A DNA stretch of 64,000 bases from Candidatus Anderseniibacteriota bacterium (GTDB lineage Bacteria; Patescibacteriota; Andersenbacteria; UBA10190), in contig JAIOOW010000002.1 in assembly GCA_021414205.1 (NCBI GenBank), forward strand, positions 215,062 to 279,061, given 5' to 3'. Of the stretch, positions 9,933 through 54,494 are shown one piece after another. Under the pieces are notes generated by a model. That model saw only the letters and a list, made by a program, of their open reading frames with translations, was not told where the DNA came from and searched no databases. The position numbers were made by a program, and so were the translations under genes. The stretch's first letter is position 1; every line of letters begins with the position of its first letter.

Positions 9933-9951
9933 AGGATGTATACCTATTGTA

Positions 9952-11322
9952 CTATTTTTGCTGCCAAGACAGAAACTGATATTCCCCTGTTGTCGGAAAA
10001 TACGGAGGGGGACCGTACAGTAAATTCGAATCATACGAAGACGTTCCGCTTTGATATCCTCCTATAACTGCATTGCTCCCATTCACCCATGTAGTAACTG
10101 GTACGAGATTGCTTGCTACCATTCCATACGTAGTAATAGAGTTTCGCAATATATAAGATCCAGTATTGTAATATCGTCGGCCAAACCTGCCATGCTGCGC
10201 TACGAACGCTCCATCCATTTCTAGGTTATTTGCCGCACCGGAATTCGGAATAAGTACATTGCCTTGCGACACCGCGCCGAACTCGCGTGTGCCGTCTTTG
10301 ACGCCGCCATACGTAACACTTCCGTTTATAATAATATCCGTATAGGTACTTGGGTTTTCCGGAAACTTTCCCGATGCAATAGTTACCCTGCTTGCAACAG
10401 TACCCTCAACCCACACAGAATCCTCAAAAAACAATATCCCGCCAGATGGAACAGTTGCCGACGTAACCAGGGACTCCTTCTTAATATCATACGAGGAGCT
10501 CACCCAGCCATCATCAGGGAAATAAGAAGAGATGTTGGATTGCTTACTCGTTACTTTATACAGTGAGTACGTATTATTCGAGTTAAATACAATATGGTAC
10601 CCATATCCTCCAGATGAGCCAAAATACGTATTCGCAGATTGAGCAGCTGCTTTCATGGAAACCAAATCCGCAGTAAGCCCGGCATAATCTACTGAAGAAA
10701 CAGGATATTGCCACAAGGCACTGTTTCCGCCGGACCCCCATACTCCTGGTTTCGTAGGATTCCCGCTGCATCCTTGTGTTGATTTGCACGTATATGTCGC
10801 CTTCGCACTTGTCATCGTGCTATCCGACTGACCATCCATGCGAATTCCGCCATTCGAATGCACTGCCCCCGAAATTGTTTCACCAAACCAAACATCGTCA
10901 TTGAGCAGCATTGCATATTTCGCAAATGACGGCTTTCCGTACGTTGCCTGCAATGTCACATCGCGAACCGGCGCAGTGGCCGTGTGACCAACAGATGTGA
11001 TTTGCACAATAGTGCTCCCATTTTGGGGAGGGACAAATGTAAGCGTATATGTTCCCAACACACCCTTTAGCTGATCGTATACCTGGTTTTGAACAGAGGA
11101 AAAATCGTTTCCGTTATGTGCCAAGCGCCATCGAGCATAATTCAATCCTGATTCCGCAACTTGAAATGCAGTTTCGTCTTGCGCCGTGAGCCCCCCTTGC
11201 TGATACTGCTGATTCGTCACTCCACCCAGCGACACGAACATCACACCGATCATCATGACCAGCACAACCATCATAATTAAAATCGAACCGGATTGTTTTT
11301 GCTTGCTCAGATTTATCTCCAT
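9952..11322 (-). CDS. large PilX-N-domain-like pilus-associated secreted protein (456 aa)
   Basis: N-terminal hydrophobic anchor then AFQVAESGLNYARWRL (PilX N-terminal-like); Ser/Thr/Gly/Asn-rich beta-rich remainder. Confidence 0.55.
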   Translation of the reverse strand: MEINLSKQKQSGSILIMMVVLVMMIGVMFVSLGGVTNQQYQQGGLTAQDETAFQVAESGLNYARWRLAHNGNDFSSVQNQVYDQLKGVLGTYTLTFVPPQNGSTIVQITSVGHTATAPVRDVTLQATYGKPSFAKYAMLLNDDVWFGETISGAVHSNGGIRMDGQSDSTMTSAKATYTCKSTQGCSGNPTKPGVWGSGGNSALWQYPVSSVDYAGLTADLVSMKAAAQSANTYFGSSGGYGYHIVFNSNNTYSLYKVTSKQSNISSYFPDDGWVSSSYDIKKESLVTSATVPSGGILFFEDSVWVEGTVASRVTIASGKFPENPSTYTDIIINGSVTYGGVKDGTREFGAVSQGNVLIPNSGAANNLEMDGAFVAQHGRFGRRYYNTGSYILRNSITTYGMVASNLVPVTTWVNGSNAVIGGYQSGTSSYDSNLLYGPPPYFPTTGEYQFLSWQQK

Positions 11323-12641
11323 GATGGAATGCTAAACAGCATCGTTTGCCAAAATGGCGGAATCGGATAGCCATATGTAAGAGGACTGATATACAAAAAT
11401 CCCAAGAATATAACGATACATGCCGTAATCACAAATTCTTTTTTGCGCACCACATGCTTATCCATCCACCAAATGGCAATAATGATCGAAAACACTAGTG
11501 GCGTAAGATAATGATATAAAAACAGTACGCGAGGAACGCGCATAAGTGGAACATACGCCCAGAGATAACCTACAATCATCAGCCAGACGTATCCCGAATT
11601 CTTGATAGATATTTTTTTCCTTTGAATACCCGATACGATCATAGCAAGCATCGCAATGCAGAAAAATATGAATCCCCCCCACCACACTGCCGGATTACCC
11701 AATAGGTACACAAACTGATTCCCGGAATTTCCTTGCCAATAAAATACCGGACGAATCATAAACGGCCACGTCCACCATTTACTTCCATATGGATGCCCGG
11801 CCGTTAAATTATAGTTTGCAGAAATCATTTCTTGGTGAATAGAGATAATGTCTTGTGCAAAATTTCCTGTTGGAACCCCCCATACATCCCCAGAGCCCGG
11901 AAGAGTAAGTATTGAAAAATGAATTGCCCAAGCACCTAGATACACCACTATTGCACACACTCCCACGATAATCGCCTTTGCTGCCCACGATGCGACTACT
12001 ACCCTTTTTTTCTTCCACGCTTCAACAATCCACAATATAATCACAAGCCCCCCTGCAATAAGGCCGGTAAATTTTATTCCCATAGAAGCGCCTGCCAGGA
12101 TTCCCGTAAGAATTACAAATATCCATGATGCTAGCTTGCTACGGACCTTAATGCTCGCAATTGCCGATGCAATAGTCCCAAACGTTGCAACAAGCAGAAT
12201 GTTATCCATCAAAATAAATCTAGATTCAACGATGAGTGCATTATCGAGCGCAATGGCAACGCCACCTAACAACGCAAACAATCTTGAGACATTCATCAGA
12301 CGCAACAATATAAATATCACTCCTGCTAATACCGTCCCAAATAATGCGGGTACCAACCGAATGCCCGCAATAGGAACGTTCGTGAACGGCTGACCAATAT
12401 ACTCAAATGGAAACAAGCCGTTATACCCAGACAGGTACGCTCCAAATGCTATAACTAATTTTCCAATCGGTGGATGAATATCGAAAAATCGCTCATGCGT
12501 ACAACAGTATGCAGAAACAAATTTTCCAAAATGCACTTCATCAAATACGACTTGCGGGATATACGACAAAAACAACACACGAGCAAGCAGCGCAACTATA
12601 ACAACAACTAGTACTGCCAGAATGTCTTTTTTAGTAATCAT
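11313..12641 (-). CDS. dolichyl/polyprenyl-phosphate-mannose protein O-mannosyltransferase (PMT family, GT39, GT-C fold)
   Basis: DEVHFGKF loop-1 motif after the first TM; polytopic about 440 aa typical of bacterial PMT. Confidence 0.75.
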   Translation of the reverse strand: MITKKDILAVLVVVIVALLARVLFLSYIPQVVFDEVHFGKFVSAYCCTHERFFDIHPPIGKLVIAFGAYLSGYNGLFPFEYIGQPFTNVPIAGIRLVPALFGTVLAGVIFILLRLMNVSRLFALLGGVAIALDNALIVESRFILMDNILLVATFGTIASAIASIKVRSKLASWIFVILTGILAGASMGIKFTGLIAGGLVIILWIVEAWKKKRVVVASWAAKAIIVGVCAIVVYLGAWAIHFSILTLPGSGDVWGVPTGNFAQDIISIHQEMISANYNLTAGHPYGSKWWTWPFMIRPVFYWQGNSGNQFVYLLGNPAVWWGGFIFFCIAMLAMIVSGIQRKKISIKNSGYVWLMIVGYLWAYVPLMRVPRVLFLYHYLTPLVFSIIIAIWWMDKHVVRKKEFVITACIVIFLGFLYISPLTYGYPIPPFWQTMLFSIPSWR

Positions 12642-13228: not shown

Positions 13229-13229
13229 A

Positions 13230-15750: not shown

Positions 15751-15754
15751 ATAA

Positions 15755-17515: not shown

Positions 17516-17986
17516 TTACTGTACGGTAATTGTTGCGTGAAATGCTGCATGCAAATGGTCATGCATGCCGAACGTTCCAACTTTCACAAATGTAAATCGA
17601 TAAAAGTCGCCGGGCGCAAGCGCATGCTTTGAATCGAATCCTGGCAGATCAGTATGGATCGGGTGCGGATCGGACGCTGGCCAGTGAGGCGAAGTGCCCG
17701 TATTTTTAAACGTTATCGTTGTTCCAGATTTTACCGTAATAGCATTTGGGACAATTCCAGCATCAGTCATTTCAACAACCGGATTTTCCGCTGCCATTAC
17801 ATCAGGTGTTATACTTGGCGCTTGTTGCACCAAAACCCCCGACGGAGAAGACGACGGCTCAGACGTAGGATTGGCATGAATATTTATAGCCTCATCATCT
17901 TGCCCTCTATGACTCATAACGTAGGCACCTGCGCCTATAATAATAACGGCGATAATAAGTAACGATATTGTAGTTGATGTTTTCAT
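17516..17986 (-). CDS. secreted/anchored cupredoxin-fold-like protein lacking Cys
   Basis: N-terminal TM, Pro/Ser linker, beta-sandwich-like C-domain with His-rich motifs (HWPASDPHPIH, FGMHDHLH) but no cysteine. Confidence 0.45.
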   Translation of the reverse strand: MKTSTTISLLIIAVIIIGAGAYVMSHRGQDDEAINIHANPTSEPSSSPSGVLVQQAPSITPDVMAAENPVVEMTDAGIVPNAITVKSGTTITFKNTGTSPHWPASDPHPIHTDLPGFDSKHALAPGDFYRFTFVKVGTFGMHDHLHAAFHATITVQ

Positions 17987-18021
17987 ACAATAACTATACC
18001 CCCGTATGCTATACTTTGGCC

Positions 18022-23487: not shown

Positions 23488-24522
23488 TTATATCCCAAAC
23501 TGAGCTTTTTCCTGAGGAGGAACAAGTTGGATACGATGCTTTGCAAATAAATGGATGATATTTAAAATGATTTCTTGGCGCGCGACGAGATACACATCAA
23601 AATCACGATCATCAATAATATAGACAAGCTCGAACATAATCGCCTTAGTCCCCATCTCTACTAAAAAGGCGCTCTTGCACGCTGCATGATCAACCGCGCT
23701 AACGCTCTCTTCGAGAATGCCAGGAATTTTTGCAAGCGTTTTTGCGTCGGTACCGTATGGCACTGCAATATTCATCACAGAACGACGCTCTTTCATCCTC
23801 CTGAAATTACTAATGCGCGCAGCAGAAATATCCTTGTTCGGGATGCTCACTTCCTCTCCTGAAAGCGCCCTAATCCTAGTCGTTTTAATGCCGATTTTTT
23901 GCACTGTTCCGCTATTCCCACCCACCACAATATAATCCCCAATCACGAATGGCTTATCAAAGAATATTGCAATGGAGCTGAATAAATCTCCTAAAATATT
24001 CTGCGCAGCAAGCGCAATCGCAATTCCCCCGATTCCTAGGCCAGCAATTAAAGATGTGATATTTACTCCAAAATTCGAAAGGACGAATAATAATGCCGTC
24101 AGCCATAACGCAATTTTAATAATTCCCGATAAGATGCCTGAAACCATCGCGCTTCCAGCTTTTGTATTCGTGCGCACCTTTTCTGAAATAATAAAATCTA
24201 TAAAAATCTGAAACGCAATAATTGCCTGAATAATCGCCCAGATGATAAATACCTTATTGATAAGGGCGCTCGCAAAAGCGTCAACCCGTAAATACTGAAG
24301 CGCAAACACGAATGACGCAAACCAATAGAACGGCGCATTCACAGTTCCGATCATTTCTACGATAGCATCGTCAATTAATGTTCCCGATTTTTCTGCGAAT
24401 TTCTTACTGGATGCGAGAAGTCCCCTTTTTATAATCATCACACTGAGGGCAGCAATGGAAAATATCAACAATGCGACAGCATATTGAAACACCGTATTCC
24501 CCCAGTACGTTTCTATAGCCAT
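23488..24522 (-). CDS. mscS: small-conductance mechanosensitive channel (MscS family)
   Basis: TM region plus conserved MscS beta-domain (VQKIGIKTTRIRALSGEEVSIPN). Confidence 0.85.
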   Translation of the reverse strand: MAIETYWGNTVFQYAVALLIFSIAALSVMIIKRGLLASSKKFAEKSGTLIDDAIVEMIGTVNAPFYWFASFVFALQYLRVDAFASALINKVFIIWAIIQAIIAFQIFIDFIISEKVRTNTKAGSAMVSGILSGIIKIALWLTALLFVLSNFGVNITSLIAGLGIGGIAIALAAQNILGDLFSSIAIFFDKPFVIGDYIVVGGNSGTVQKIGIKTTRIRALSGEEVSIPNKDISAARISNFRRMKERRSVMNIAVPYGTDAKTLAKIPGILEESVSAVDHAACKSAFLVEMGTKAIMFELVYIIDDRDFDVYLVARQEIILNIIHLFAKHRIQLVPPQEKAQFGI

Positions 24523-24549: not shown

Positions 24550-25971
24550 ATGAACAACGTGCCATTATGCGTGGACTTAGACGGAACGCTCGTCCGAACA
24601 AACACATTACTCGAGACGACACTTATTACATTAAAAAAGAACCCGTTCTTTCTAATTTCCCTTGTAAAGGGGTTGCCCCGCGGCAAAGCATTCGTCAAAC
24701 GGCTCATTGGAAAACAATTTTCTACAGACCCGGCAACTTTGCCATACAATACCGAATTTCTCGACTGGATTAGGCAAGAGCGTGCAAATGGGCGAACGCT
24801 CATTCTCGCAACTGCAAGCGACGAATTAATCGCAAAAAAAATTGCTGACTATCTCGGAATATTTAGCGCCATCATTGCCAGCACGCCAGAAAAAAGCGTG
24901 ACAGCAGATGGAAAGGCACTGGTACTATGTGCGATGTACGGTTCTAGCAATTTTTCTTATGCCGGCAACTCCCATTCCGATTTATCCGTATGGAATTGCA
25001 GTAACAATGCCATACTAGTAGACGCACCAAACAATATAACTTCACAAATAAAAAAAGAAGTTCATATTGAAAAAGAATTCACAACACACACCGCGCCAAA
25101 ATTAAAAGTCATCGCAAAGACAATGCGCATTCATCAGTGGGTAAAAAATACGCTGTTATTCATACCAGCACTTGCTGCCCATGAATTATTTCAAACGCAC
25201 ACTGCAATTCAAGCGATCGTCGGCTTTTTATCATTCAGCTTACTTGCATCTGCCGTATATATTTTTAACGATATCACTGACATCCCTTCCGATAGAGCGC
25301 ATGCCACAAAGAAGTTCCGCCCTATTGCATCTGGCGCAATAGCAATCAAGCAAGCACTAGCACTCGGCGTAATCTGTTCCGTAGCAAGTATTGCCTTATC
25401 CCTACTGGCCCTCCCGATATCATTCCTCTTGATTCTTGCGATCTATCTTGGTATCAATATTTGCTATTCGCTATTCGCAAAGAAAATCGCATATCTCGAT
25501 ATTATTATCTTAGCCAGCTTATACGTACTTCGTGTGTTTGCGGGAAGCTTCGCCACAGGAATTGCAACATCAAAGTGGCTGTTCGTATGGACGCTTTTCT
25601 TCTTCTTAAGCCTGGCAATCATGAAGCGTGTTATTGAGTTGCTCAAGCACACAAAAGAAGAAAAACTGCATGGCAGAGGCTACCATAAAGCAGACAGATT
25701 AATCCTGGAGTATGCTGGCATTGCCTCGGCAAGCATTTCGGTCATCATTCTAGCTTTATATATTCATAGCCCATCGATATTCGTTCTCTATACATCCCCC
25801 GCATTACTGTGGGGCATGGTAGGCGTTGTCATGCTTTGGCTTGGGAGAATATGGACACTAGCCCTTCAAGGAGAACTTCCTGACGACCCGGTGTTATTTG
25901 CCGCTACGGACCCAATAAGCTATGGCGCTATATGCGTCATCATTGCAACCATGTTGCTTGCGTCCCACTAA
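24550..25971 (+). CDS. HAD-phosphatase / UbiA-prenyltransferase fusion (decaprenyl-phosphate phosphoribosyltransferase-like)
   Basis: N-terminal DLDGTL HAD motif I; C-terminal polytopic UbiA domain with NDITDIPSDRAHATKKFRPIASG (NDxxDxxxD). Confidence 0.8.
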   Translation: MNNVPLCVDLDGTLVRTNTLLETTLITLKKNPFFLISLVKGLPRGKAFVKRLIGKQFSTDPATLPYNTEFLDWIRQERANGRTLILATASDELIAKKIADYLGIFSAIIASTPEKSVTADGKALVLCAMYGSSNFSYAGNSHSDLSVWNCSNNAILVDAPNNITSQIKKEVHIEKEFTTHTAPKLKVIAKTMRIHQWVKNTLLFIPALAAHELFQTHTAIQAIVGFLSFSLLASAVYIFNDITDIPSDRAHATKKFRPIASGAIAIKQALALGVICSVASIALSLLALPISFLLILAIYLGINICYSLFAKKIAYLDIIILASLYVLRVFAGSFATGIATSKWLFVWTLFFFLSLAIMKRVIELLKHTKEEKLHGRGYHKADRLILEYAGIASASISVIILALYIHSPSIFVLYTSPALLWGMVGVVMLWLGRIWTLALQGELPDDPVLFAATDPISYGAICVIIATMLLASH

Positions 25972-26592
25972 TTGCCCCATACTAGCTATATGATATCGTT
26001 CACATTAGATAGCATCATCACCCTTATTCGAACGTACGGCTATGAGATTATTTTCCCGCTATCTATTATAGAAGGTCCTATTGTTGCGGTACTATCTGGC
26101 TTCATCGCATCACTGGGAAAATTAAATATATTCTTTGTATTCCTCGTACTACTGGCAGGAGATATTGTGGGGGATACTATACACTATGCGATTGGCAGAT
26201 GGGGACGCCACAACTTTATTAAAAAATGGGGAAAGTATATTGGCGTCACGGAAGAAAAAATACAGGCGCTGGAAAAATATTTCGAAAAACATAATTGGAA
26301 AATTCTTGCATTTGGAAAAACCCAGCCAATCGGATCCGCAATTCTTATTTCTGCCGGGCTTGCTGGCATGCCCTACTGGTCATACATCTGGTACAACATC
26401 TTAAGCACTATTCCCAAAATATTCATCTTAGAAATGATTGGGTACTACTTTGGCGACGCATACTACAAAATAAGCAGCCTATTAAGCTATGCAGGAGTCG
26501 CTTCTCTTATTATTGCAATCCTCTTTATCGGACTCTATCTGTGGTTCCAATCCTATCTCAAAAAAAGAGGTCCGAATATTGATAAGATATGA
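25972..26592 (+). CDS. DedA-family membrane protein
   Basis: SNARE-associated/DedA topology and motifs (EGPIVAV..GF, GKTQPIG). Confidence 0.8.
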   Translation: MPHTSYMISFTLDSIITLIRTYGYEIIFPLSIIEGPIVAVLSGFIASLGKLNIFFVFLVLLAGDIVGDTIHYAIGRWGRHNFIKKWGKYIGVTEEKIQALEKYFEKHNWKILAFGKTQPIGSAILISAGLAGMPYWSYIWYNILSTIPKIFILEMIGYYFGDAYYKISSLLSYAGVASLIIAILFIGLYLWFQSYLKKRGPNIDKI

Positions 26593-27632
26593 AAAAGCTG
26601 GTCATCGTCACAGACACATGGCATCCGCAGGTAAATGGGGTAGTAACATGCATTGAAAACATTCTGCCGTCCCTCGAAAAAAATAATTTCGAAGTTACTA
26701 TTATCCACCCAGGACTGTTTTGGACGGTGCCGCTGTTTTTCTATCCAGAAATCAGATTATCACCCATTCCATATAGAAAAATGAAAAAAATGCTCGCAGA
26801 ACTTGCGCCCGATTACATTCACATCATAACGGAAGGACCCCTTGGTCTTTCTGCCAGAATTTTATGCCAGCAAAAAGAATGGAAATTCACCACTTCGTAT
26901 CACACAAATTTTTCTCAATACATTCAAATGAGAATTGGGCCGTTATTTGGAACAGTGAACGCATACATCACCTGGTTCCATAATGCAGGAAGTACGACAA
27001 TGGTGGGAACAGACAGTCTTAAAAAGGAGCTTTCAGAGTATGGAGTAAAGAATATTTCAATTTGGCCGTTAGGCGTTGATACAAAACGCTTTACGAAAAA
27101 CGAGGATACGGCTCACATGCCAGACGAAATACAACATCTCGCAAAACCGATTTTTGCATATTTTGGCAGAGTTGCAGTTGAAAAGAACATTGAAGAATTC
27201 CTACAATTGACCCTACCAGGAACAAAGCTGGTCATTGGCGAAGGGCCCCAACAAGAATCTCTGCAAGAAAAATACCCAGACACCATCTTTACAGGATACA
27301 AACAAGGAAAAGATCTCATTGATTGGCTGTCACACTGCAATGTATTAGTATTCCCCTCTCTTACCGATACCTTCGGATTAGTTATCATCGAAGCGCTCGC
27401 AATGGGAATTCCAGTTGCGGCTCATGATGTTACCGGACCAAAAGACATCATCTCACAAGGCGTAGACGGCTACTTAGGCGACAATCTCGCACAAGCAGCC
27501 ATACAGTGCCTCAAGCTTAACCCGAGCGCTTGCAGACAAAAAGCAATGCAATACTCATGGGAACACTCTACTGAACAATTTATGAGCCATGTAGTACCCG
27601 CCCACGAACCGGAGACCGACGAGTTAACATAA
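26589..27632 (+). CDS. glycosyltransferase family 4 (GT-B)
   Basis: C-terminal FPSLTDTFGLVIIEALAMGIPV (EX7E-type motif). Confidence 0.8.
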   Translation: MKKLVIVTDTWHPQVNGVVTCIENILPSLEKNNFEVTIIHPGLFWTVPLFFYPEIRLSPIPYRKMKKMLAELAPDYIHIITEGPLGLSARILCQQKEWKFTTSYHTNFSQYIQMRIGPLFGTVNAYITWFHNAGSTTMVGTDSLKKELSEYGVKNISIWPLGVDTKRFTKNEDTAHMPDEIQHLAKPIFAYFGRVAVEKNIEEFLQLTLPGTKLVIGEGPQQESLQEKYPDTIFTGYKQGKDLIDWLSHCNVLVFPSLTDTFGLVIIEALAMGIPVAAHDVTGPKDIISQGVDGYLGDNLAQAAIQCLKLNPSACRQKAMQYSWEHSTEQFMSHVVPAHEPETDELT

Positions 27633-28293
27633 ACAATCGCAGATTTTGAGAGACGACTTCTCGCAATGGAATAACGGACAATACGTGCCGCATTGTTTCC
27701 ATATCTCCTTTTAATCCTGCAAAAAATCCCAATTTTGCAATTTTACGAGGGCTCGTAACGCGCGACCAAGAAACAATGTTCAGTGATGCGCGCTTACTAA
27801 TAACAACCCTATTCATAAATACTTCGAGGCCATAACTCGGCAACGCTTTCATTGCGTCCATATATTCTGCAAATAATCTTTTATAAAAAACTCGCTCGCC
27901 AGTAATAAAATCCAAGCCGAGCAATCGATAAAATAAAATACTATGCCCGCGCAAACTCATAGTCACATCAAATTGTCCGGAAATTACTGGGGCAAGCAAC
28001 CGATGAATACTCTCAGAAGTGACTCCTAATAAATCCGCATCAAGCATCACAATAATATCTCCACTAGCACGTTCCAACCCCGTTGCAACAGCAAAGCTTT
28101 TACCCTTATTTTCAGGTAAAGCTATGAGCTGAATGTTTGGATATTGTTTTACTGCGCTTCCTGTCCCATCAGTAGACCCGTCGTCGACTACGATTATCTC
28201 TGCAATATCCTTGCATGCAAGCGCTGCCTGAAGAACGTTATGGATCCGCCCCTCCTCGTTATATGCTGCGATAATACACGTAACGTTTGCCAC
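27580..28293 (-). CDS. glycosyltransferase family 2 (polyprenyl-phosphate sugar synthase-like)
   Basis: N-terminal IIAAYNEE...VVDDGSTDGT...MLDADL GT2 signature. Confidence 0.8.
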   Translation of the reverse strand: MANVTCIIAAYNEEGRIHNVLQAALACKDIAEIIVVDDGSTDGTGSAVKQYPNIQLIALPENKGKSFAVATGLERASGDIIVMLDADLLGVTSESIHRLLAPVISGQFDVTMSLRGHSILFYRLLGLDFITGERVFYKRLFAEYMDAMKALPSYGLEVFMNRVVISKRASLNIVSWSRVTSPRKIAKLGFFAGLKGDMETMRHVLSVIPLREVVSQNLRLFMLTRRSPVRGRVLHGS

Positions 28294-28309: not shown

Positions 28310-29032
28310 CTAATTGAGTGCGGAATCTATTGCTTGCTGGAACGTTGCGTATGGCTGGGCACCAATAATCGGCGTTTGCTTGCCATCTTTGCCAATGAGA
28401 ATGAAGAACGGCGTACCAACTTGTTGACCTGCGGCACTCATAACCTTTTCAACTGCCACAAGCTCGTCCTCATCCGCCTGTACAACATTCCCGTACGGCG
28501 CATCCTTAATGCATGATTGAAATGCTGAGATATCAGCAACTCCGGCTTCTTGCGCATACTTCGGCAAATCGGCAAGATTTAACCCGTCATTCGAGGGCGT
28601 ATTAGAGAAAATAGTATCTGTAAATTCCCAAAACTTCCCTTGTGCACTCGCACATTCTGCAGCAATCGCTTCTTGCGTTGTTTGTTGATGCACAGAAAGG
28701 CCGTGTCGATATACAAGACGAACCTTACCCGCATTATTTGCCATTAACTGCTTAAGAGTATTATGGGCTATTTTACAAAACGGGCATTCTAAATCCGAAT
28801 ATTCGATAAGGGTTACCGGTGCGTTTTTATCGCCCATAATATGATCCGCATCGGAAATTGCTCGAATATCAAAATGATCCGGCAACGGTCCGGGAGTAGC
28901 TTGCTGTGCGACTTGAGCGGCAGGAGCAACGGGAGCAGGCCCTACTTTTGAAAAATAGATACCTCCCGCAATTAACGCTCCTGCAATAACAATGGCTGCG
29001 GGAATTGAGAAAGCCTGTTTTATTTCTGGCAT
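28310..29032 (-). CDS. DsbA-like thioredoxin-fold oxidoreductase (membrane-anchored)
   Basis: CPFC active site, N-terminal TM, thioredoxin fold. Confidence 0.75.
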   Translation of the reverse strand: MPEIKQAFSIPAAIVIAGALIAGGIYFSKVGPAPVAPAAQVAQQATPGPLPDHFDIRAISDADHIMGDKNAPVTLIEYSDLECPFCKIAHNTLKQLMANNAGKVRLVYRHGLSVHQQTTQEAIAAECASAQGKFWEFTDTIFSNTPSNDGLNLADLPKYAQEAGVADISAFQSCIKDAPYGNVVQADEDELVAVEKVMSAAGQQVGTPFFILIGKDGKQTPIIGAQPYATFQQAIDSALN

Positions 29033-29345: not shown

Positions 29346-30206
29346 ATGTATATCGCATTTGATATCGGCGGAACAAACACGAGAATAGCCATTTCAAAAG
29401 ACGGCAAAACTCTCAACAAGCCCTCTATATACCCTACACCACAAGATTTTGATACCGGGATACAGAAATTCATCGAAACAGTAAAAAACATTTCCGGCAA
29501 TGAGCCTATCACGGCAATTGCCGGAGGAATTCCTGGTCCAATGGATCCTCAAAAAACAATGTTACTTAAAGCGCCAAATTTGAAGGGCTGGAACAACAAG
29601 CCACTAAAAGCTTTGCTTGAAAAAGAATTGCAAACTCAGGTCTTCCTAGAGAACGATACTGCCATGTGGGGTATCGGTGAAGCAACGCGTGGCGCAGGCC
29701 AAGGGTTCGCTATTATGGCTTACGTAACAGTCAGTACCGGTGTTGGCGGAACAAGAATCGTTCATGAAAAAATAGATGCGAGTGCACAAGGATTCGAACC
29801 TGGACACCAAATTATCGACCTCGCAGGCCCTGAGTGCGGATGCGGCGGAAACGGTCATCTGGAAGCATTTATATCTGGTACAGCATTGCAAAAAAAATAC
29901 GGAAAAGCTCCTAAAGAGATTAAAGATGCTCAGGTATGGGACGAAACAGCGAAATACTTGGCAATAGGCCTGCTTAATACAGCGGTATTTTGGTCACCTC
30001 ATTGCATTGTACTAGGAGGGTCAATAATGAAAGATATCGATATAGACCTCGTGCAAACGTATATGCGAGAATACAACCATATCCTACCGACCTTGCCTGC
30101 TATAAAAAAATCAACGCTCGGTGATGAAGGAGGCTTAATTGGGGCCCTGCAGCTTGCGTGCTACACTACTACACATGGATCTGTCGATCGTAGTACCAGC
30201 ATATAA
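29346..30206 (+). CDS. ROK-family sugar kinase (glucokinase-like)
   Basis: DIGGTNTR N-terminus; CGCGGNGHLE zinc motif of the ROK family. Confidence 0.8.
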   Translation: MYIAFDIGGTNTRIAISKDGKTLNKPSIYPTPQDFDTGIQKFIETVKNISGNEPITAIAGGIPGPMDPQKTMLLKAPNLKGWNNKPLKALLEKELQTQVFLENDTAMWGIGEATRGAGQGFAIMAYVTVSTGVGGTRIVHEKIDASAQGFEPGHQIIDLAGPECGCGGNGHLEAFISGTALQKKYGKAPKEIKDAQVWDETAKYLAIGLLNTAVFWSPHCIVLGGSIMKDIDIDLVQTYMREYNHILPTLPAIKKSTLGDEGGLIGALQLACYTTTHGSVDRSTSI

Positions 30207-30963
30207 ACAAGCTCCGACCATCCAACAGGATTTGCGGAGTTTGTCTGCATTTCTAGATTCCCTACACACTTCATACGAACTCATTCTCGTCATTGATGGC
30301 GACATAGACGACACAGCTCTCATTGTAAAACAAGACGACACGCTAGCACACGTACGCATCATACCGATCAAAAAAAATCACGGGAAAGGCTACGCCTTAA
30401 AGCAAGGATTCTTGGCATCCAGCGGCAATATTGTGGGATTCATCGACGCGGGCGGCGATATCGAATTTAATTGCCTTCGCCTCATGTTCGAACTTATGCA
30501 ATTCACCCATGCGGATATTGTCATCGGATCAAAACGGCATCCGTTATCCCAAGTACAATACCCGCTTGTCAGGCACATCTACAGCTTCTCATATCAATTG
30601 CTCAATCGCATGCTCTTTCGCCTCAATATTCGTGATACCCAAGTTGGAGTAAAGTTGTTTCGCAAAGACGCCCTCACGCAAATTCTTCCGCATGTTCAAA
30701 TAAACAAATTTGCATTCGACCTCGAATTGCTCGTGCATGCTCACGCGCTCGGATTCACACACATCATTGAATCCCCCGTTCGCATTACACACAAATTTAA
30801 CAGCACGATCGGTTTCGGCGTAATTATCGAGACCCTCTATGATACGATACGGCTGTATTTTCGAAATGAACCAAGACAGCTCAACGTCAAACCTTCTTCA
30901 GGAATTTCTGTTTCATATTCGCCCAGCTCTTCCCAAACCACAATCAAAGAACACGTACGATAG
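30175..30963 (+). CDS. glycosyltransferase family 2
   Basis: MDLSIVVPAYKQ...VIDGDIDDT...IDAGGD GT2 motifs; the track ORF begins at TTG 30139 but the conserved N-terminus starts at ATG 30175. Confidence 0.75.
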   Translation: MDLSIVVPAYKQAPTIQQDLRSLSAFLDSLHTSYELILVIDGDIDDTALIVKQDDTLAHVRIIPIKKNHGKGYALKQGFLASSGNIVGFIDAGGDIEFNCLRLMFELMQFTHADIVIGSKRHPLSQVQYPLVRHIYSFSYQLLNRMLFRLNIRDTQVGVKLFRKDALTQILPHVQINKFAFDLELLVHAHALGFTHIIESPVRITHKFNSTIGFGVIIETLYDTIRLYFRNEPRQLNVKPSSGISVSYSPSSSQTTIKEHVR

Positions 30964-30974
30964 TATGCGCATAT

Positions 30975-40042: not shown

Positions 40043-40760
40043 TTGGGCAGTTACGGTTCCAATGGCAAACGAAGAGAAAGATTTTCAGCACTTTGCCGAG
40101 GAAGTTACAAAGGTTCTTGACGATATTGGTTCTGGAACAGTCTACCATGTTATCAATAATTTTTCGCATGACCGAACATATGAACTTTCACAAGAATTAT
40201 CTTTAAAGGATTCGCGCTTCATAACAATATTCGCTCCGGAAAATCGCCACTTACCGGATGCGTACATAAGCGGTCTTCGTGCCGCATTCGATGCAGGAAA
40301 TAAATACATTATCGAAATGGATGCCGGACTATCGCACGATCCTCATCAGCTTCCCGACTTCCTTAGGGCGCTCGAAGCCGGGCACCAGTGCGTGTTTGGC
40401 AGCAGAATGGTTCCAGGAGGATCAATTACGCATTCACCAATCAATCGCAGACTTCTTTCTCGTGCAGGCACGCTGCTTTCTAATACAATGCTAGGAACAA
40501 AGTTGGCAGACATGACAAGCGGATATCAAGGATTTCATCGAGACGTGGTGGAGAATATCATCAACTATCCGCTACAATCAACAGCTCATTTTTATCAAAC
40601 CGAATTGCGATACCTTCTGCGCAATTATAATACATGCGAAATACCTATTTCGTATCAATCCCCTTCCCCCCGCGTTTCAAAACGAGCAATTCAAAATGCG
40701 TACCAAACATTGCTGCACTATTTCTTTCTGCGGCTATCTGGTCGAGCAAAGGAGCTGTAA
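40026..40760 (+). CDS. glycosyltransferase family 2, polyprenyl-monophosphomannose (Ppm/DPM) synthase-like
   Basis: WAVTVPMANEE (PAYNE-like), EMDAGLSHDP (DAD-SHDP-like) motifs. Confidence 0.75.
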   Translation: MSIRHSWAVTVPMANEEKDFQHFAEEVTKVLDDIGSGTVYHVINNFSHDRTYELSQELSLKDSRFITIFAPENRHLPDAYISGLRAAFDAGNKYIIEMDAGLSHDPHQLPDFLRALEAGHQCVFGSRMVPGGSITHSPINRRLLSRAGTLLSNTMLGTKLADMTSGYQGFHRDVVENIINYPLQSTAHFYQTELRYLLRNYNTCEIPISYQSPSPRVSKRAIQNAYQTLLHYFFLRLSGRAKEL

Positions 40761-43045
40761 CATGCAATCGAGATTATCAGTATTGTTATAAAAAGACCGA
40801 TAAAAAACCCGGGCGCCTTATACTGAAATACGATATCGTAACTACCCTCCGATATATCTATCGCAGGTCGATTCGATTCGATGATTGCAGGCTTGCCATT
40901 TGCCATCCAGCCTTTCGCATAATTTTCATTTAGCACAACGCGCGTAGCAATCGGCGTATCAACATGAACCTTTACCGTATTGTAACTCCAGAAAACTATG
41001 GTTACTTTTGCTCGAGAATCTAGAGCCGAAACGGCGCCCGTATCCCCTTCATCATAAATAGTCCGCACTGCAGACTGCGGGCCGAGCACTGAGCAATACG
41101 CCTCCGTTCCATAGCCTGCAAAATACGCATCTGTCGTTCTTGTCGTTCGAGACCCTTGCCCAGCATCATCATATCGCTCAGGGGTATAGGCAATAGGATA
41201 TGGAGCTGGAGATATTAATGGAATAACATGAGGCAACACGAATGCCTGCTCAGAAATTTGATACGTCAAACTAATCAAGTCTATGGCAATAAAACCGATT
41301 ACGCACACTTGAATAACGTTGCCGTATTTTGGCATAAAATTGCGCAATCGATCCATTCCATAGCTCGCTAAAAGTGCAATCGGAATTACTGCAAACACAA
41401 TCACGCGAGATAAATTAGACCTCGGCAAAAACTTAATATGATCCAGGATCGGCGCCAAAAACGGTCCAAGTGTAGAGAGCGCAATTGCCAATATCGTCGC
41501 AATACTAAGAGCTCGGATAATGCGATTCTGGAAAAAGCGCGCACTGCCAATTAACGCCAATACCAATGCGCCATATCCTATATACGCGCCATACTCGTGC
41601 CACCCACTGCTTTGATTCAAAATTACATACGTATCATGTAAATATCGACCAAAAAATATATCCCCCAGCCATGGGAGCGTGTACGAGGACGGCACATACA
41701 CCCTATCCGTAAATTGCTTCAACCAATATATAACAGGAATTAATTTAAACGACACGAGGCCGAGCCCCCATAATCCCGACTTCAAGGCAGTTAAAAATGC
41801 ATCTTTTTTTCGAGAAGCAAGCAAGGTCAAAACAATAAACGCGATCGTGGTATATATAAGCAAATACACTCCTCCGCCCAAAAATGTAAGTGCTAAAAAT
41901 ATTCCAAGTATTATTGGGCGCATTTTTTTCTGATACACGCAAAGCCAAGCCCAAAATATCCACGGAATCCACATGACGGTAAGAATATTCACATGCCCCT
42001 CGACGTTTTCAATTAAATTAACTCCACCGAATGAAACAATAAGAGCTGCAAGCAGTCCTGCCTCAACAGATCGCCCAAGCTTGCGCGCCAACACGAGCAT
42101 ACCAATCGCACCGACTATAACGGATAGCACCACATCAAGCCGTAACCCCCACGAAGAACCAAATAGTAATACCAATAAAAACGTTGGTGTAAATACTGGA
42201 AATTCCGGATCCCCTAATCCTGCTGTACCCCCGCAAGGATACGGATCCCAGAACGGAAAGGTATGCAATTGCAAAATTGCTTTGCGATACGAATCGTGAA
42301 GAGGTACATACAAATCCCAATCAGCTATTCCCAAGTCTCCGGTTGGAAATAAATACCCCAAATTTCCAAGTGGTGCAAGAAAAACGATACCTACTATAGC
42401 CCCTATCATTTTCTGCTTACTTGTTTTTAAAAGTGAAATTAAGGCAATACCGATCATTGCAATTGCGCCAACAATAACTCCTTGTCGAGCACCAAAGTCT
42501 GTAGGAACACGCCTCATAAACGTCAAAGAAATAATTGCAGACTGTGGCTGTCCATTTATTGACAACTTTTGAGCAGCGGATAGATTTTTATCTCGCTCCA
42601 TCATAAGAAGCGACAATGGATCCCCGTGCAGGAACGAAATGTCGAGCAAATACGCCCCCTCATGACTAACCCTCCACCAACTCGTATCCATCTGAATACG
42701 AGAAACGTTCGCACTTGAAAGATAAGAAACAGTATCGGCATCGCCCCGAGCAACGATACTGCCTTTGGGGTCCGTAATAACTACCCGCACTACCCTCCCT
42801 GATAACGTTGAGGTATTAGAAAATACAGCAACTCCTGAGTACACACCTTCCGTCAAATGAACTTTTTGCTGTAAATGATCACCCGCATGAAGAGAAATTT
42901 CTACTGGCGTATCAAAATATTTCACAATACGAATACGCTCCGTAGACAATGGAACAATATATACAATCAGCACCGCAACAAGAGCAATAGACGTAACTAA
43001 AATAAGTCGTCCAATTCCGGAACCAATAACTTGACGAATACCCAT
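40718..43045 (-). CDS. large (775 aa) polytopic membrane protein, putative GT-C-fold glycosyltransferase
   Basis: N-terminal anchor plus extracytoplasmic domain, then more than 10 TM helices with IADWDLYVPLHDSYR and FPFWDPYPCGG motifs, C-terminal beta-domain and final TM. Confidence 0.6.
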   Translation of the reverse strand: MGIRQVIGSGIGRLILVTSIALVAVLIVYIVPLSTERIRIVKYFDTPVEISLHAGDHLQQKVHLTEGVYSGVAVFSNTSTLSGRVVRVVITDPKGSIVARGDADTVSYLSSANVSRIQMDTSWWRVSHEGAYLLDISFLHGDPLSLLMMERDKNLSAAQKLSINGQPQSAIISLTFMRRVPTDFGARQGVIVGAIAMIGIALISLLKTSKQKMIGAIVGIVFLAPLGNLGYLFPTGDLGIADWDLYVPLHDSYRKAILQLHTFPFWDPYPCGGTAGLGDPEFPVFTPTFLLVLLFGSSWGLRLDVVLSVIVGAIGMLVLARKLGRSVEAGLLAALIVSFGGVNLIENVEGHVNILTVMWIPWIFWAWLCVYQKKMRPIILGIFLALTFLGGGVYLLIYTTIAFIVLTLLASRKKDAFLTALKSGLWGLGLVSFKLIPVIYWLKQFTDRVYVPSSYTLPWLGDIFFGRYLHDTYVILNQSSGWHEYGAYIGYGALVLALIGSARFFQNRIIRALSIATILAIALSTLGPFLAPILDHIKFLPRSNLSRVIVFAVIPIALLASYGMDRLRNFMPKYGNVIQVCVIGFIAIDLISLTYQISEQAFVLPHVIPLISPAPYPIAYTPERYDDAGQGSRTTRTTDAYFAGYGTEAYCSVLGPQSAVRTIYDEGDTGAVSALDSRAKVTIVFWSYNTVKVHVDTPIATRVVLNENYAKGWMANGKPAIIESNRPAIDISEGSYDIVFQYKAPGFFIGLFITILIISIACYSSFARPDSRRKK

Positions 43046-43055
43046 ATAGCTTTCT

Positions 43056-44336: not shown

Positions 44337-44354
44337 ACGAAATGAATACGAAAT

Positions 44355-52370: not shown

Positions 52371-54494
52371 CTAGTGTATCTCAACTACGTAGGCTTTACC
52401 ATCGGTGAAGAATGTATCTCCGGTGAAATTTTTCCCGAGCGTCGGCTGAACGAATTGCACGCTTGTATACGATAGATTACTTCCCCCACTTACTAAATCG
52501 TGCAGCAATACTCCTCGCTCGTTATCCACATTCGGATCAATCGCGTGAGTAGCAAATATCCATTTTAAATGAGTATCTAAGCTCGCAACCCCCACATACA
52601 CTCTATCTCCTGAATCAGTAACATACGCGGTACGCCAGAATCGGGCATGATTACGGGATTTAATATTATCAGCAGACGTAGGCTTCTCGAAGGCAAAATC
52701 ATTCACCTCCTGATTCCAAAACGACGGCGTTATGGGGGCCGTAGGATATGGTTTTCCCGTTACGCCGGCAACGAGCAAATCTATCATTGTTCGAGCACTT
52801 AACTGCTGTGCCGGATACCATCCTGCCTTCGTAAACGCTGATACAAACGCTGATTCGCTCGGAGCAGTAACAATAAATGCAATCGGCTCCTGACGATTTC
52901 CTCGCAGCGTTTCCGTATACTGCGGAGACCCGTCAGAAAATATATCCAGAGCATTCTTAGTGGTAGTAGAAGCTGTCTCGAATACCGGCGGCGCGAGCAA
53001 GAGATCATCAATTGCGTCATGGCCAACTGCAATAAAATATACTGCAAAGGCGATAATGCACACTCCTGTGCCGGCTAACGCGAACGGATGCGACTGAACG
53101 CGAGCAGCAACTGCATGATTCGGTTTTTTATGAGACATCCACTCAGATAGGCTAATACCAATAATAAGCCATAATAGGCCCATCAAGTATCCGCCCCATA
53201 CGTCTGAGAAATAATGCACGCCCACATACAAACGAGACAATCCGATAAGAAAAATAACGGCAAGCCCGAAAAAGGTTATATATATCTTGTTTCTCCATCT
53301 GCGGGCATACCGCACTGCTATGTAGGTAAGAAATCCATACAGTGCTACCGCAAAGATCGAATGCCCGCTTGGGAATGAAAATGACTGCTCGGTATATACC
53401 GCAACCCCTACCGGACGAGGGCGATGCAACTCAAATTTGCCGATAAGCCCTACGATTTGGCTCCCGGCAACTGCAATCCATAAAGGAATAATAAAACGTT
53501 CTTTTCGCCACAAAAATAACACAGCAGATGCGCACACAAGCGTGCCTGCAGCAATTACCCAGTTCCCGAGCATGGTGACCCATAAGAAAAACGTGGTAGC
53601 TGGGCCGGAGCGGAATGCATACAATAAATTCTCAACCCGAACATCTGCTCCTGACAGCACTGTCGACGTAGCAAGACTCTGCACAATTCCAAAAAATTCA
53701 AGCAATGCACCCAAAAATGCGATAACAAGCAACGTAAACGGCATTCCCCAGAAGGAATCCGTCCTGCTTCTATCTCTCAAAAATCGAGATGTGCGCGGAT
53801 GGTGCTGAGCCCATAGCACAACATCGTGATTTGTAATAATAGCGTGGAGCACAGACAACCATATCGATTGTGCGAATCGATATATGCGCTTAGCGCGTCG
53901 AGCTGTAAATCTTGCCAAGTACCATAAACCAATAATAAATAGCCCAGCAACCAAAATGAACAACCCCGCACGCGTCGACCATTTTTCTGCAACACGCCAT
54001 GCCGCACCAAAAAAGTACCCGGTATACACGTGAGCTGCCGACCACCCGATTGCGCTTATAATATTCCAAATAAAGAATTGCCTTGTGTCCATTTTGAACA
54101 TTCCGGCAATATACGGAATAAACGACCGAATTCCGCTAATAAACCTTCCTAAAAACACGCTATAGTATCCATGCTTCTTGAAAAATTGTTCGCCTCGAGC
54201 CAAATGCTTCGTATGAAAAATACGATTCGTATCGGAAAATATTGACGTTCCGTATCGCCCCCAAAAAAAGCTCACTGCATCGCCGATAATCGCACCTACA
54301 ATACAAATGCTAGTTAACACCAGCGGATTCATCTCCCCTTTTGAGGCAATAAATCCAAGCAGCGTTACCACGATAGACCCAGGAACAAGAAAACCTACAA
54401 ATGCCACCGCTTCTAATATCGATGCCAAAAATCCTACAAGATACCCCCAGTATCCTATATGTTCGATGTATGCGAAAAGTTGATCAACCCACAT
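52371..54494 (-). CDS. tripartite DedA / PAP2 phosphatase / LssY-C-domain membrane protein
   Basis: N-terminal DedA domain, central PAP2 motifs (KxxxxxxRP, PSGHS, SRLYVGVHYFSD), C-terminal soluble LssY-like domain. Confidence 0.75.
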   Translation of the reverse strand: MWVDQLFAYIEHIGYWGYLVGFLASILEAVAFVGFLVPGSIVVTLLGFIASKGEMNPLVLTSICIVGAIIGDAVSFFWGRYGTSIFSDTNRIFHTKHLARGEQFFKKHGYYSVFLGRFISGIRSFIPYIAGMFKMDTRQFFIWNIISAIGWSAAHVYTGYFFGAAWRVAEKWSTRAGLFILVAGLFIIGLWYLARFTARRAKRIYRFAQSIWLSVLHAIITNHDVVLWAQHHPRTSRFLRDRSRTDSFWGMPFTLLVIAFLGALLEFFGIVQSLATSTVLSGADVRVENLLYAFRSGPATTFFLWVTMLGNWVIAAGTLVCASAVLFLWRKERFIIPLWIAVAGSQIVGLIGKFELHRPRPVGVAVYTEQSFSFPSGHSIFAVALYGFLTYIAVRYARRWRNKIYITFFGLAVIFLIGLSRLYVGVHYFSDVWGGYLMGLLWLIIGISLSEWMSHKKPNHAVAARVQSHPFALAGTGVCIIAFAVYFIAVGHDAIDDLLLAPPVFETASTTTKNALDIFSDGSPQYTETLRGNRQEPIAFIVTAPSESAFVSAFTKAGWYPAQQLSARTMIDLLVAGVTGKPYPTAPITPSFWNQEVNDFAFEKPTSADNIKSRNHARFWRTAYVTDSGDRVYVGVASLDTHLKWIFATHAIDPNVDNERGVLLHDLVSGGSNLSYTSVQFVQPTLGKNFTGDTFFTDGKAYVVEIH

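Follow-up and report, generated by a model that had tools for sequence, protein, structure and literature searches.

A HAD phosphatase–UbiA fusion protein of Candidatus Andersenbacteria as a likely polyprenyl-phosphoribofuranose synthase next to an independent DedA glycosyltransferase module

The 64-kb window (the whole stretch of DNA analysed, 64,000 nucleotides) carries a gene at 24550..25971 (+ strand, ATG start, 473 aa) that fuses a HAD-family phosphatase to a UbiA-superfamily transferase. The sequence indicates that the encoded enzyme most likely supplies lipid-linked ribose as the donor with which cell-surface glycans are decorated. The gene was assigned as PRP-PPPRS, a bifunctional phosphoribose phosphatase and polyprenyl-phosphate 5-phosphoribosyltransferase. 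We are fairly confident of the account as a whole, namely an ORF15-type synthase, a ribofuranose donor, its use by a GT-C enzyme, and a neighbouring DedA protein that is part of an independent module.

Domain organization and motifs of the fusion protein

The HAD-family phosphatase (PRP) domain spans residues 1−180 (24550..25089, +) and the UbiA-superfamily phosphoribosyltransferase domain residues 185−473 (25102..25968, +), the latter with approximately nine transmembrane segments. The initial annotation had described a HAD domain and a UbiA domain with an NDxxDxxxD motif on one 473-aa protein, and both the ORF and the Pfam matches bore this out: UbiA (PF01040) matched residues 206−445 with E=4e-25, and HAD (PF12710) matched with E=4e-6. 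The DLDGTL motif corresponded to residues 9−14 (nt 24574−24591) and NDITDIPSD to residues 240−248 (nt 25267−25293). The NCBIfam model NF006088 scored 536.2 bits (cutoff 351), with residues 2−472 covering profile positions 10−480 of 482. A full-length score of 536 bits on a curated model of the family shows that the fusion is no chance pattern. The protein was 100% identical to that of a Candidatus Andersenbacteria MAG.

In the phosphatase domain, HAD motifs I (D9-x-D11-G-T13), II (T88), III (K122) and IV (G139-N140-S141-x-x-D144) were present and were invariant or nearly so across 22 homologues. Motif IV reads G-N-S-x-x-D instead of G-D-x-x-x-D, the first Asp being replaced by Asn throughout the fusion family. 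Searches of the PDB with this domain, both as a single sequence and as a profile, gave no significant match, and the fold was therefore taken from structure prediction, which returned a Rossmann-like core with a helical cap. In the PPPRS domain, loop II (N240-D241-xx-D244-xxx-D248) and loop IV (R360-xx-E363) were identified, with N240, D241, D244, D248, R360 and E363 invariant in the homologue alignment.

Assignment of the UbiA domain to the phosphoribosyltransferase type

The UbiA domain had been proposed to resemble the mycobacterial phosphoribosyltransferase Rv3806c rather than UbiA, MenA or heme O synthase, and this was supported by the HMM scores, the PDB match and the clustering. DPPR-synthase HMMs matched the fusion protein with E=1e-46 to 7e-37, and all other UbiA-superfamily models with 4e-10 or weaker. 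The sole PDB sequence match of the domain was M. tuberculosis Rv3806c (8j8j; E=6e-28, 35.6% identity over 180 aa). The matches to E. coli UbiA and MenA were short, at 30 bits only, and in the clustering the domain grouped with Rv3806c, not with E. coli UbiA, MenA or CyoE. As the domain is of the Rv3806c type, the menaquinone/ubiquinone-type clustering that the initial annotation had named as counter-evidence was not found.

The residues of Rv3806c that contact PRPP and Mg (K28, Y70, N73, D77, Q135, Y138 and Y157) were then compared. Six of these seven were identical in the fusion protein and invariant in its family (K199, Y237, N240, D244, Y306 and Y325). The remaining one, the ribose-O3 contact Q135, corresponded to N303 here and to N, T or S within the fusion family. 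The protein scored below the DPPR-synthase equivalog cutoffs (NF008976/7/8; 158.9 vs 207, 138.5 vs 234 and 127.4 vs 474 bits); it is a homologue predicted to work like a DPPR synthase, not an equivalog.

A different enzyme, namely an aromatic or lipid prenyltransferase of the UbiA, MenA or archaeal-lipid type whose HAD domain has degenerated and which has no relation to phosphoribosyl transfer, would suit the generic names in databases (‘UbiA family prenyltransferase’, ‘4-hydroxybenzoate polyprenyltransferase/phosphoserine phosphatase’) and the weak matches to models of UbiA, heme O synthase and DGGGP synthase. Those model matches, however, stand at E=4e-10 or weaker against 1e-46 for the DPPR synthase models, the PDB match is to Rv3806c only, the PRPP-contact residues are kept, the clustering is with Rv3806c, and the HAD motifs are intact and invariant. 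A prenyltransferase of this kind is scarcely credible and effectively already refuted.

Proposed reaction sequence

ORF15 of Citrobacter youngae O1 was shown biochemically to convert PRPP and polyprenyl-phosphate to polyprenyl-P-ribofuranose (Kelly et al., PNAS 2024, PMC11127046). As PRP-PPPRS, it is the first component of ‘three-component’ pentofuranose side-chain systems, which further comprise a flippase (ORF14, MATE), a GT-C (ORF12, GT136) and, optionally, where the sugar is Araf or Xylf, an epimerase (ORF13 or DprE1/DprE2 type); in serotype O1 this prototype operates without an epimerase (PMC11127046). Every residue tested in ORF15 was invariant in the window fusion protein and in the relatives aligned. 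The likeness to ORF15 (AWU66546.1) was drawn from shared architecture, motifs and the taxon list of that paper rather than from a direct alignment. Among the taxa given as carriers of ORF15-type systems are B. multivorans and R. etli (PMC11127046), whose fusion proteins were 36% identical to the window protein over their full length. Burkholderia and Rhizobium loci from the plasmid collection served as ORF15-type proxies. A tblastn search of the phage collection for an ORF15-type system returned a UbiA-only fragment alone, BK026208.1 not being among the matches, and blastn of the fusion gene against all complete E. coli genomes gave no match.

The fusion protein is proposed to be an ORF15-type bifunctional polyprenyl-phosphoribofuranose synthase. 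Homology and the conservation of all catalytic residues tested suggest that it would first carry out phosphoribosyl transfer. The HAD domain, on the same side of the membrane, would then strip the 5-phosphate with Asp9 as the nucleophile to give polyprenyl-P-β-D-ribofuranose, a step proposed because of the published D18A experiment on ORF15 and the intact HAD motifs and fold seen here. The initial annotation had suggested that the fused HAD domain could remove the 5-phosphate; by analogy with C. youngae ORF15, where this was shown for the same architecture (PMC11127046), it may well do so. With less confidence, the donor would probably remain ribofuranose. In the last step a transporter would flip it, and a GT-C glycosyltransferase would pass the sugar to a surface acceptor.

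Distribution of the fusion and the fate of the sugar

The fusion family (NF006088 / PRK08238) comprises thousands of members in many phyla, and at least 591 matches were confirmed among the species-representative genomes. With this number of matches, an NCBIfam model of its own and a biochemically characterised member, the novelty that the initial annotation had implied for the fusion did not hold: it is an already characterised, widespread enzyme type, and the window protein is new only as a further member.

A DprE1-like gene adjoined the fusion gene in 51 of 77 loci, an SDR in 33 and an NAD-epimerase in 32. DprE1/DprE2-like genes lay directly downstream of the fusion in other phyla and in some Patescibacteria, and two Patescibacteria relatives carried them in the syntenic slot that is held by DedA-GT4-GT2 in the window. 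No DprE1/DprE2- or ORF13-type epimerase was found in the 64-kb window, which extends 24 kb upstream and 38 kb downstream of the fusion. BLAST of the R. etli DprE1/E2 proteins against the window gave a match of no more than 81 residues, within the FAD-binding domain. Two genes were considered as substitutes and rejected. The FAD-linked oxidase at 17974−19644 is GlcD/YdiJ-like (266 bits, vs 19.5 bits on DprE1). The SDR at 4400−5341, the only SDR epimerase-like gene in the window and of the NDP-sugar dehydratase type, is a generic dTDP-glucose-dehydratase/UDP-xylose-synthase-like protein, 20 kb away and with nothing linking it to the fusion.

Since the 64-kb window holds no epimerase of these types, the product probably stays ribofuranose, and, on the view of the genome that the window gives, ribofuranose is probably the final donor sugar. 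The proposed version of the mycobacterial pathway is thus retained up to polyprenyl-P-ribose, and its arabinose part, which calls for DprE1/DprE2, is not. Alternatively, polyprenyl-P-ribose could be only an intermediate, which an epimerase encoded outside the window would turn into polyprenyl-P-arabinofuranose or -xylofuranose, as happens in mycobacteria, in rhizobia and in the majority of the other fusion carriers. The 51 of 77 loci with a DprE1-like neighbour and the two relatives with such genes in the syntenic slot fit this alternative. Nevertheless, it was judged unlikely, given that the 24 kb upstream and the 38 kb downstream contain no such gene, that the slot is taken here by DedA-GT4-GT2, and that the prototype, ORF15, does without an epimerase in serotype O1.

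The downstream DedA is part of a DedA-GT4-GT2 module

The fusion gene is followed by a small DedA/VTT-domain membrane protein (25972..26592, +; PF09335, E=1e-18), the first gene of the module. Its mechanical start is a TTG at 25972, right after the TAA stop of the fusion gene; as the orthologues are 200 aa long, the ATG at 25990, giving 200 aa, is the likelier start. The gap between the two same-strand genes is therefore 0−18 nt. The DedA stop overlaps (ATGA, 26589−26592) the start of a GT4-family glycosyltransferase (26589..27632, +; Pfam Glyco_trans_1_4, Glyco_transf_4 and Glycos_transf_1), which always follows the small DedA in relatives. The third gene, a GT2-family glycosyltransferase (27580..28293, −; PF00535, E=6e-24), is convergent with and overlaps GT4, an arrangement also seen in L081, L089 and L090. 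A promoter/terminator scan and an Rfam scan of 22−30 kb were uninformative. The DedA gene had been described as translationally coupled to the fusion gene; what the sequence shows is tight adjacency.

No DedA gene lay beside the fusion gene in any of 80 loci from other lineages. Among relatives, L083, L084 and L086 had the DedA-GT4 pair in inverted orientation, L085, L087, L088 and L095 lacked it, and the DedA-GT4-GT2 triad recurred in unrelated contexts without the fusion gene. The small DedA fell below the cutoffs of the UptA equivalog models (69.1 vs 250 and 24.3 vs 300 bits). In an alignment of ~20% identity, the YghB residues E39, D51, R130 and R136 corresponded to a deletion (10 residues), P, K and G, respectively. 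[quoted passage not shown] On these grounds (no DedA neighbour in 80 loci, inversion or absence in relatives, the triad without the fusion, and no R130/R136, the arginine pair of UndP-flipping DedAs), the suggested role of the DedA as a flippase or recycler of the pathway was not supported. The small DedA belongs to an independent DedA-GT4-GT2 module whose insertion beside the fusion gene, in this sublineage, would be incidental.

The opposing view, that the fusion enzyme, the downstream DedA and a distant DedA-PAP2 protein form one dedicated pathway in which DedA flips or recycles the lipid for a polyprenyl-P-pentose cycle, draws on several observations. The genes share a strand and are separated by 0−18 nt that contain no terminator-like site, the gene order is the same in a 70%-identical relative, DedAs recycle GT-C-released polyprenyl-P in Pseudomonas (Ara4N) and mycobacteria (DPA), and the window holds no other flippase candidate. 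Weighed against the 0 of 80 loci with a DedA neighbour, the inverted or missing DedA-GT4 in the seven relatives above, the occurrence of the triad elsewhere without the fusion, a score of 69 bits against the 250-bit UptA cutoff, the missing equivalents of YghB R136, D51 and E39, and the generic nature of DedA-PAP2 fusions, such a dedicated pathway is quite improbable.

Flippase candidates and the distant DedA-PAP2 protein

No homologue of the GtrA proteins from the Burkholderia/Rhizobium loci was found in the window, no window ORF of at least 300 aa had a MATE, GtrA or EamA Pfam match, and no dedicated MATE, SMR or GtrA flippase was found beside the synthase. By motif inspection, the only small polytopic window ORFs appear to encode a CDP-alcohol-phosphatidyltransferase-like and a VKOR-like protein. 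In L088 and L095, small genes without annotation adjoin the fusion gene; they were rejected as flippases, their products being soluble and without a homologue in the window.

The second DedA-PAP2 fusion noted initially does exist, as a 707-aa triple-domain protein (52371..54494, −; PF09335, PF01569) with VTT/DedA (37−160), PAP2 (338−448) and LssY_C (524−700) domains in Pfam. It keeps the canonical GRFISGIR motif, which aligned to YghB R130/R136. DedA-PAP2 fusions are a known architecture for UndPP-to-UndP recycling (bioRxiv 10.1101/2022.02.03.479048). The 707-aa protein is a candidate for general polyprenyl-PP dephosphorylation and polyprenyl-P recycling, not specific to the fusion gene; lying 26 kb away, with a generic recycling function, it provides no evidence for the pathway.

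Candidate GT-C consumers of the donor

That a lipid-linked pentose donor would feed GT-C enzymes, as initially suggested, agrees by analogy with the established role of such synthases. The best and most consistently linked candidate transferase, judged by gene linkage and fold, is mem775 (40718..43045, −), a polytopic, YfhO-like membrane protein of 775 aa that combines a GT-C fold with CBM-like beta-domains. The YfhO-like assignment came from weak Pfam matches (E=0.22, marginal) in the window protein and clear precomputed matches in relatives. The mem775 gene was linked to the fusion gene in relatives, and its homologues also occurred without a fusion gene nearby; synteny by descent may account for some of the linkage. 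An HMM of mem775 orthologues gave no match among neighbour ORFs of 80 loci from other phyla, and the single BLAST match, an ORF upstream of the fusion in L002 (24% over 191 aa), was judged marginal. In Firmicutes, YfhO, CsbB and GtcA form three-component systems for teichoic-acid glycosylation (PMC5836110, PMC8035078).

An alternative consumer of the polyprenyl-P-sugar donor is a PMT-family GT-C glycosyltransferase (11313..12641, −; PF02366, E=1e-42; PF16192, E=2e-33), whose gene sits inside a type IV pilus operon and adjoins a prepilin-like gene (12638−13228; N_methyl). A GT2 gene paired with one for a 510-aa polytopic protein (30139−32507) was rejected as a consumer; the pairing is conserved in relatives, which points to a separate polyprenyl-P-hexose system.

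We tentatively raise the possibility that the Patescibacteria ORF15-type synthase pairs with a lineage-specific, YfhO-like, CBM-bearing GT-C (mem775 in the window) rather than with a GT136, Emb/Aft or TfpW-type enzyme. As an optional extension, the small DedA, non-canonical in that it has lost the arginines that bind phosphate, could transport a sugar-loaded lipid and not free polyprenyl-P. Such a pairing of synthase and GT-C, if true, would amount to a new GT-C family that pentofuranosylates a CPR surface glycan, the sugar being ribofuranose in this genome and arabinofuranose in the DprE1/E2-bearing relatives.

Significance

Both the chemistry of this enzyme type and its broad occurrence are in the literature, which leaves little that is new in the fusion as such. 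The envelopes of Candidatus Andersenbacteria and related Patescibacteria are essentially uncharacterised, and the analysis suggests that these bacteria are able to produce a pentofuranose donor linked to polyprenyl. Between sister lineages one genomic slot varies, which holds DprE1/E2 (arabinofuranose type) or nothing of the kind (ribofuranose type). A partner for the fusion enzyme, the YfhO-like GT-C with carbohydrate-binding domains, is nominated. The recurrent DedA-GT4-GT2 module, with a DedA that lacks the polyprenyl-phosphate flippase signature, may bear on DedA substrate diversity.

Comparison with known systems

Both DedA proteins of the window share the VTT/DedA domain with the UptA-type flippases and the DedA-PAP2 fusions (Roney & Rudner; Todor et al.). 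Unlike these, the small DedA has a first re-entrant loop that is shortened, carries K/G at the R130/R136 positions, and is tied to a GT4-GT2 pair, not to a phosphatase or to the fusion enzyme. The 707-aa protein has the architecture of the described DedA-PAP2 fusions, to which it adds LssY_C. With the YfhO systems, whose enzymes use polyprenyl-P-sugar donors outside the membrane, mem775 has the GT-C fold in common; the donor of known YfhO enzymes, however, is C55-P-hexose or -HexNAc from a GT2, not a PRPP-derived pentose.

Compared with the mycobacterial system of Rv3806c, Rv3807c, DprE1 and DprE2, the predicted window enzyme has the first two chemical steps in common. The phosphatase is a separate PAP2 enzyme (Rv3807c) in mycobacteria and a fused HAD domain in the window protein, and neither DprE1/DprE2 nor Emb/Aft enzymes are encoded in the 64-kb window. 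The rhizobial NoeC (noeCHOP-type) and the Burkholderia/Rhizobium plasmid loci carry the same full-length fusion, with 36−37% identity over about 460 aa. These loci form one operon in the order fusion, GtrA, DprE1-like, DprE2-like and GT-C (GT-C/GT87), of which GtrA, the epimerase subunits and the GT-C/GT87 have no homologue in the window.

The setting of C. youngae ORF15 differs in its host, the window being from a Patescibacteria (Andersenbacteria) MAG, and in its locus, the window having no adjacent MATE flippase, recognisable GT136 GT-C or ORF13 epimerase. The enzyme itself has the same domain order, an N-terminal HAD phosphatase followed by a C-terminal UbiA-type phosphoribosyltransferase. 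Residues D18, N247-D248-D251-D255 and R366-E369 of ORF15 correspond to D9, N240-D241-D244-D248 and R360-E363 of the window protein, respectively, and with DprE1/E2 absent from the window, the predicted product is likewise polyprenyl-P-ribofuranose.

Identification of a DPPR-synthase-type fusion protein

The fusion gene (24550-25971, + strand) is an ORF of 473 aa, in which Pfam detected a HAD domain (E=4e-6) and a UbiA domain at residues 206-445 (E=4e-25). The motif DLDGTL was located at residues 9-14 and NDITDIPSD at residues 240-248. The ORF and Pfam evidence bore out the initial annotation of a HAD-UbiA fusion followed by DedA at 24550-26592. A Candidatus Andersenbacteria MAG protein on a 470-kb contig was 100% identical to the fusion protein.

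NCBIfam NF006088 (PRK08238, 'UbiA family prenyltransferase') covered the protein end to end, scoring 536 bits where the cutoff is 351. Three decaprenyl-phosphate phosphoribosyltransferase equivalogs ranked second (E=1e-46 to 7e-37, all under their cutoffs), and the remaining UbiA-superfamily models (UbiA, heme O synthase, DGGGP synthase, chlorophyll synthase and EboC) gave E=4e-10 or weaker. The only solved structure matched by sequence was that of M. tuberculosis Rv3806c (8j8j; E=6e-28, 35.6% identity over 180 residues). When the UbiA domain was compared explicitly with Rv3806c and with E. coli UbiA, MenA and CyoE, it grouped with Rv3806c; UbiA and MenA gave 30-bit local matches and CyoE no match. 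The domain therefore clusters with the DPPR synthases and not with enzymes of the UbiA, MenA or archaeal type. Judged by these comparisons, the enzyme originally proposed is the correct one, and its chemistry is very likely the synthesis of polyprenyl-P-ribofuranose by a single polypeptide.

The fusion family is large. Among the scored candidates, 3,684 proteins passed E<=1e-5, and at least 591 confirmed matches were obtained in the species-representative genome set. The phyla among the matches listed were Pseudomonadota, Nitrospirota, Acidobacteriota, Myxococcota, Planctomycetota, Actinomycetota, Verrucomicrobiota and CPR, and the family was present on 102 records of plasmids or chromids. When the HAD domain alone was used as a profile, 2,691 clusters at 50% identity were obtained at E<=1e-30, with the HAD domain nearly always N-terminal.

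Usual partners of the fusion gene

Neighbouring ORFs were clustered over 80 fetched loci plus the window, and the fusion ORF was recovered in 77 of these. A DprE1-like FAD_binding_4 protein adjoined the fusion gene in 51 of the 77 loci; an SDR of DprE2 type was nearby in 33, an NAD-dependent epimerase in 32, a small EamA-like protein in 19 and a GtrA-like protein in 11. The R. etli plasmid locus presents the textbook array, in the order fusion, GtrA, FAD oxidase, SDR and two hypothetical proteins of ~520 aa; a GT87 gene is encoded on the other strand. In contrast, the fusion gene of the window has no such partner, with zero homologues of the R. etli-type genes across the 64 kb. A window FAD oxidase (17974-19644) was considered as DprE1 and rejected as GlcD/YdiJ-like. 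No small flippase-like ORF was found in the window. The proposed analogy to the mycobacterial pathway thus holds up to the ribose stage but not beyond, as the search for DprE1/DprE2-like genes, which covered the 64-kb window only, found none.

In two Patescibacteria relatives (L088 and L095), DprE1-like (341 bits) and DprE2-like genes lie directly downstream of the fusion gene, within the same syntenic frame as the window locus. Both an arabinofuranose type and a type lacking the epimerase are therefore represented in the lineage. With the window assigned to the second, the simplest prediction for the donor sugar is ribofuranose.

An MscS-family mechanosensitive channel gene (23488-24522, - strand) directly adjoins the fusion gene, divergently. 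In 11 of the 77 loci (e.g. Aminobacter locus L031, 6797-9370), a larger MscS/MscK-like gene of ~850 aa was seen just upstream of the fusion gene and in most cases co-oriented with it. The adjacency could be a coincidence or an unexplained association.

The adjacent DedA belongs to a separate module

The small DedA gene (25972 or 25990 to 26592, + strand; VTT domain by Pfam) starts 0-18 nt after the fusion gene, and its stop is overlapped by the start of a GT4 gene (26589-27632, + strand). The initial annotation took this DedA as a partner in the fusion pathway, which the comparative data do not support. The order fusion-DedA-GT4 was found in the window and one 70%-identical relative; the DedA-GT4 pair was inverted in relatives at 68% and 48% identity, absent in relatives at 49% identity, and replaced by DprE1/E2 in L088 and L095. 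DedA was a neighbour of the fusion gene in none of the 80 loci from other lineages. Orthologues of DedA at ~50% identity kept a triad, in unrelated neighbourhoods, of DedA overlapping GT4 and a convergent, overlapping GT2 (L089 6001-8415; L090 6001-8283), and no fusion gene was found within +/-6 kb of these triads. By this recurrence, window 25972-28293 is a self-contained DedA-GT4-GT2 module.

In the alignment to E. coli YghB (~20% identity), the small DedA was found to lack the residues regarded as essential for flipping UndP: E39 falls in a 10-residue deletion, and D51, R130 and R136 are P, K and G, respectively. The absence of the arginine pair points to another lipid as substrate, perhaps a glycolipid that the GT4/GT2 pair makes. 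DedA-mediated carrier recycling supports the GT-C pathways of Pseudomonas and mycobacteria; this is a general housekeeping link and does not argue for a dedicated operon here.

The second DedA-PAP2 fusion that had been cited for the pathway does exist (52371-54494, - strand, 707 aa), and its DedA domain retains E39, R130 and R136 in the YghB alignment. It does not count as evidence for the pathway, since DedA-PAP2 fusions have been described before; they make up about 1.3% of dedA genes and have been interpreted as coupling the dephosphorylation of UndPP to UndP flipping (bioRxiv 10.1101/2022.02.03.479048). The protein has LssY_C as a third, C-terminal domain (E=1e-42), and no mention of the triple architecture was found in the DedA literature consulted. 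On the + strand, a 137-aa polytopic ORF with a CxxC-type motif runs into the 5' end of a DsbA-like thioredoxin gene (51320-52367), by appearance a VKOR-DsbA pair; another DsbA-like gene lies at 28310-29032.

Other glycosylation genes

The gene for mem775, a YfhO-like GT-C-fold protein, lies with a Mur-ligase/FolC-like gene (43056-44465; Mur_ligase_M and Mur_ligase_C) at 40718-44465 on the - strand. The two genes immediately adjoined each other on the same strand in the four relatives examined (L085, L086, L088 and L095), hinting at a functional pair. Beyond them, a ThyX ORF (45489-47183, + strand, 564 aa), in which Thy1 matched two stretches, appears about twice the usual length and may represent a duplication or fusion of ThyX. 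In another Patescibacteria genome (L100, 2597-12301), a mem775 homologue is part of a dense island for extracytoplasmic glycosylation, together with methyltransferases, several large proteins lacking annotation and two GT-C genes of the PMT/PMT_2 type.

A GT2 (274 aa) followed by a 510-aa polytopic protein (30139-32507, + strand; ~9 TM, soluble C-terminal part, weak match to the NCBIfam MmpA family) was also found in L081, L083 and L087. The pair looks like a separate polyprenyl-P-hexose synthase and GT-C-like transferase. Inside a GT4/GT2/methyltransferase cluster, a 1201-aa protein (35338-38943, + strand) had no Pfam match; with ~12 N-terminal TM, a presumably extracytoplasmic region of ~780 residues and a C-terminal TM, it is possibly another GT-C-like enzyme.

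The type IV pilus operon (8901-17497, - strand; PilM, PilB-like ATPase, PilC-like T2SSF and a prepilin-like gene) includes a PMT-family GT-C glycosyltransferase (11313-12641, - strand) that adjoins the prepilin-like gene (12638-13228). Its position suggests pilin O-glycosylation, a setting that recalls the TfpW/D-arabinofuranose pilin glycosylation of Pseudomonas.

Comparison with ORF15 systems

The implied novelty of the HAD-UbiA fusion was not upheld, as the architecture is common and was already characterised in C. youngae O1 ORF15 (Kelly et al., PNAS 2024, PMC11127046). In ORF15 a phosphoribose phosphatase (PRP) of the HAD family forms the N-terminal part and a UbiA-type polyprenyl phosphoribose synthase (PPPRS) the C-terminal part, the same domain order as in the fusion protein. 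ORF15 membranes converted PRPP and farnesyl-P to farnesyl-P-ribofuranose, and the HAD-domain substitution D18A led to build-up of the 5-phosphate intermediate; activity needed N247, D248, D251 and D255, while R366 and E369 were dispensable (PMC11127046). Such systems pair with a flippase (MATE, SMR or GtrA type) and a GT-C transferase (GT136), and those with Xylf or Araf products have an additional ORF13-type or DprE1/E2 epimerase. The window offers a further example of a known enzyme type, in an under-studied phylum and with a testable candidate GT-C partner.
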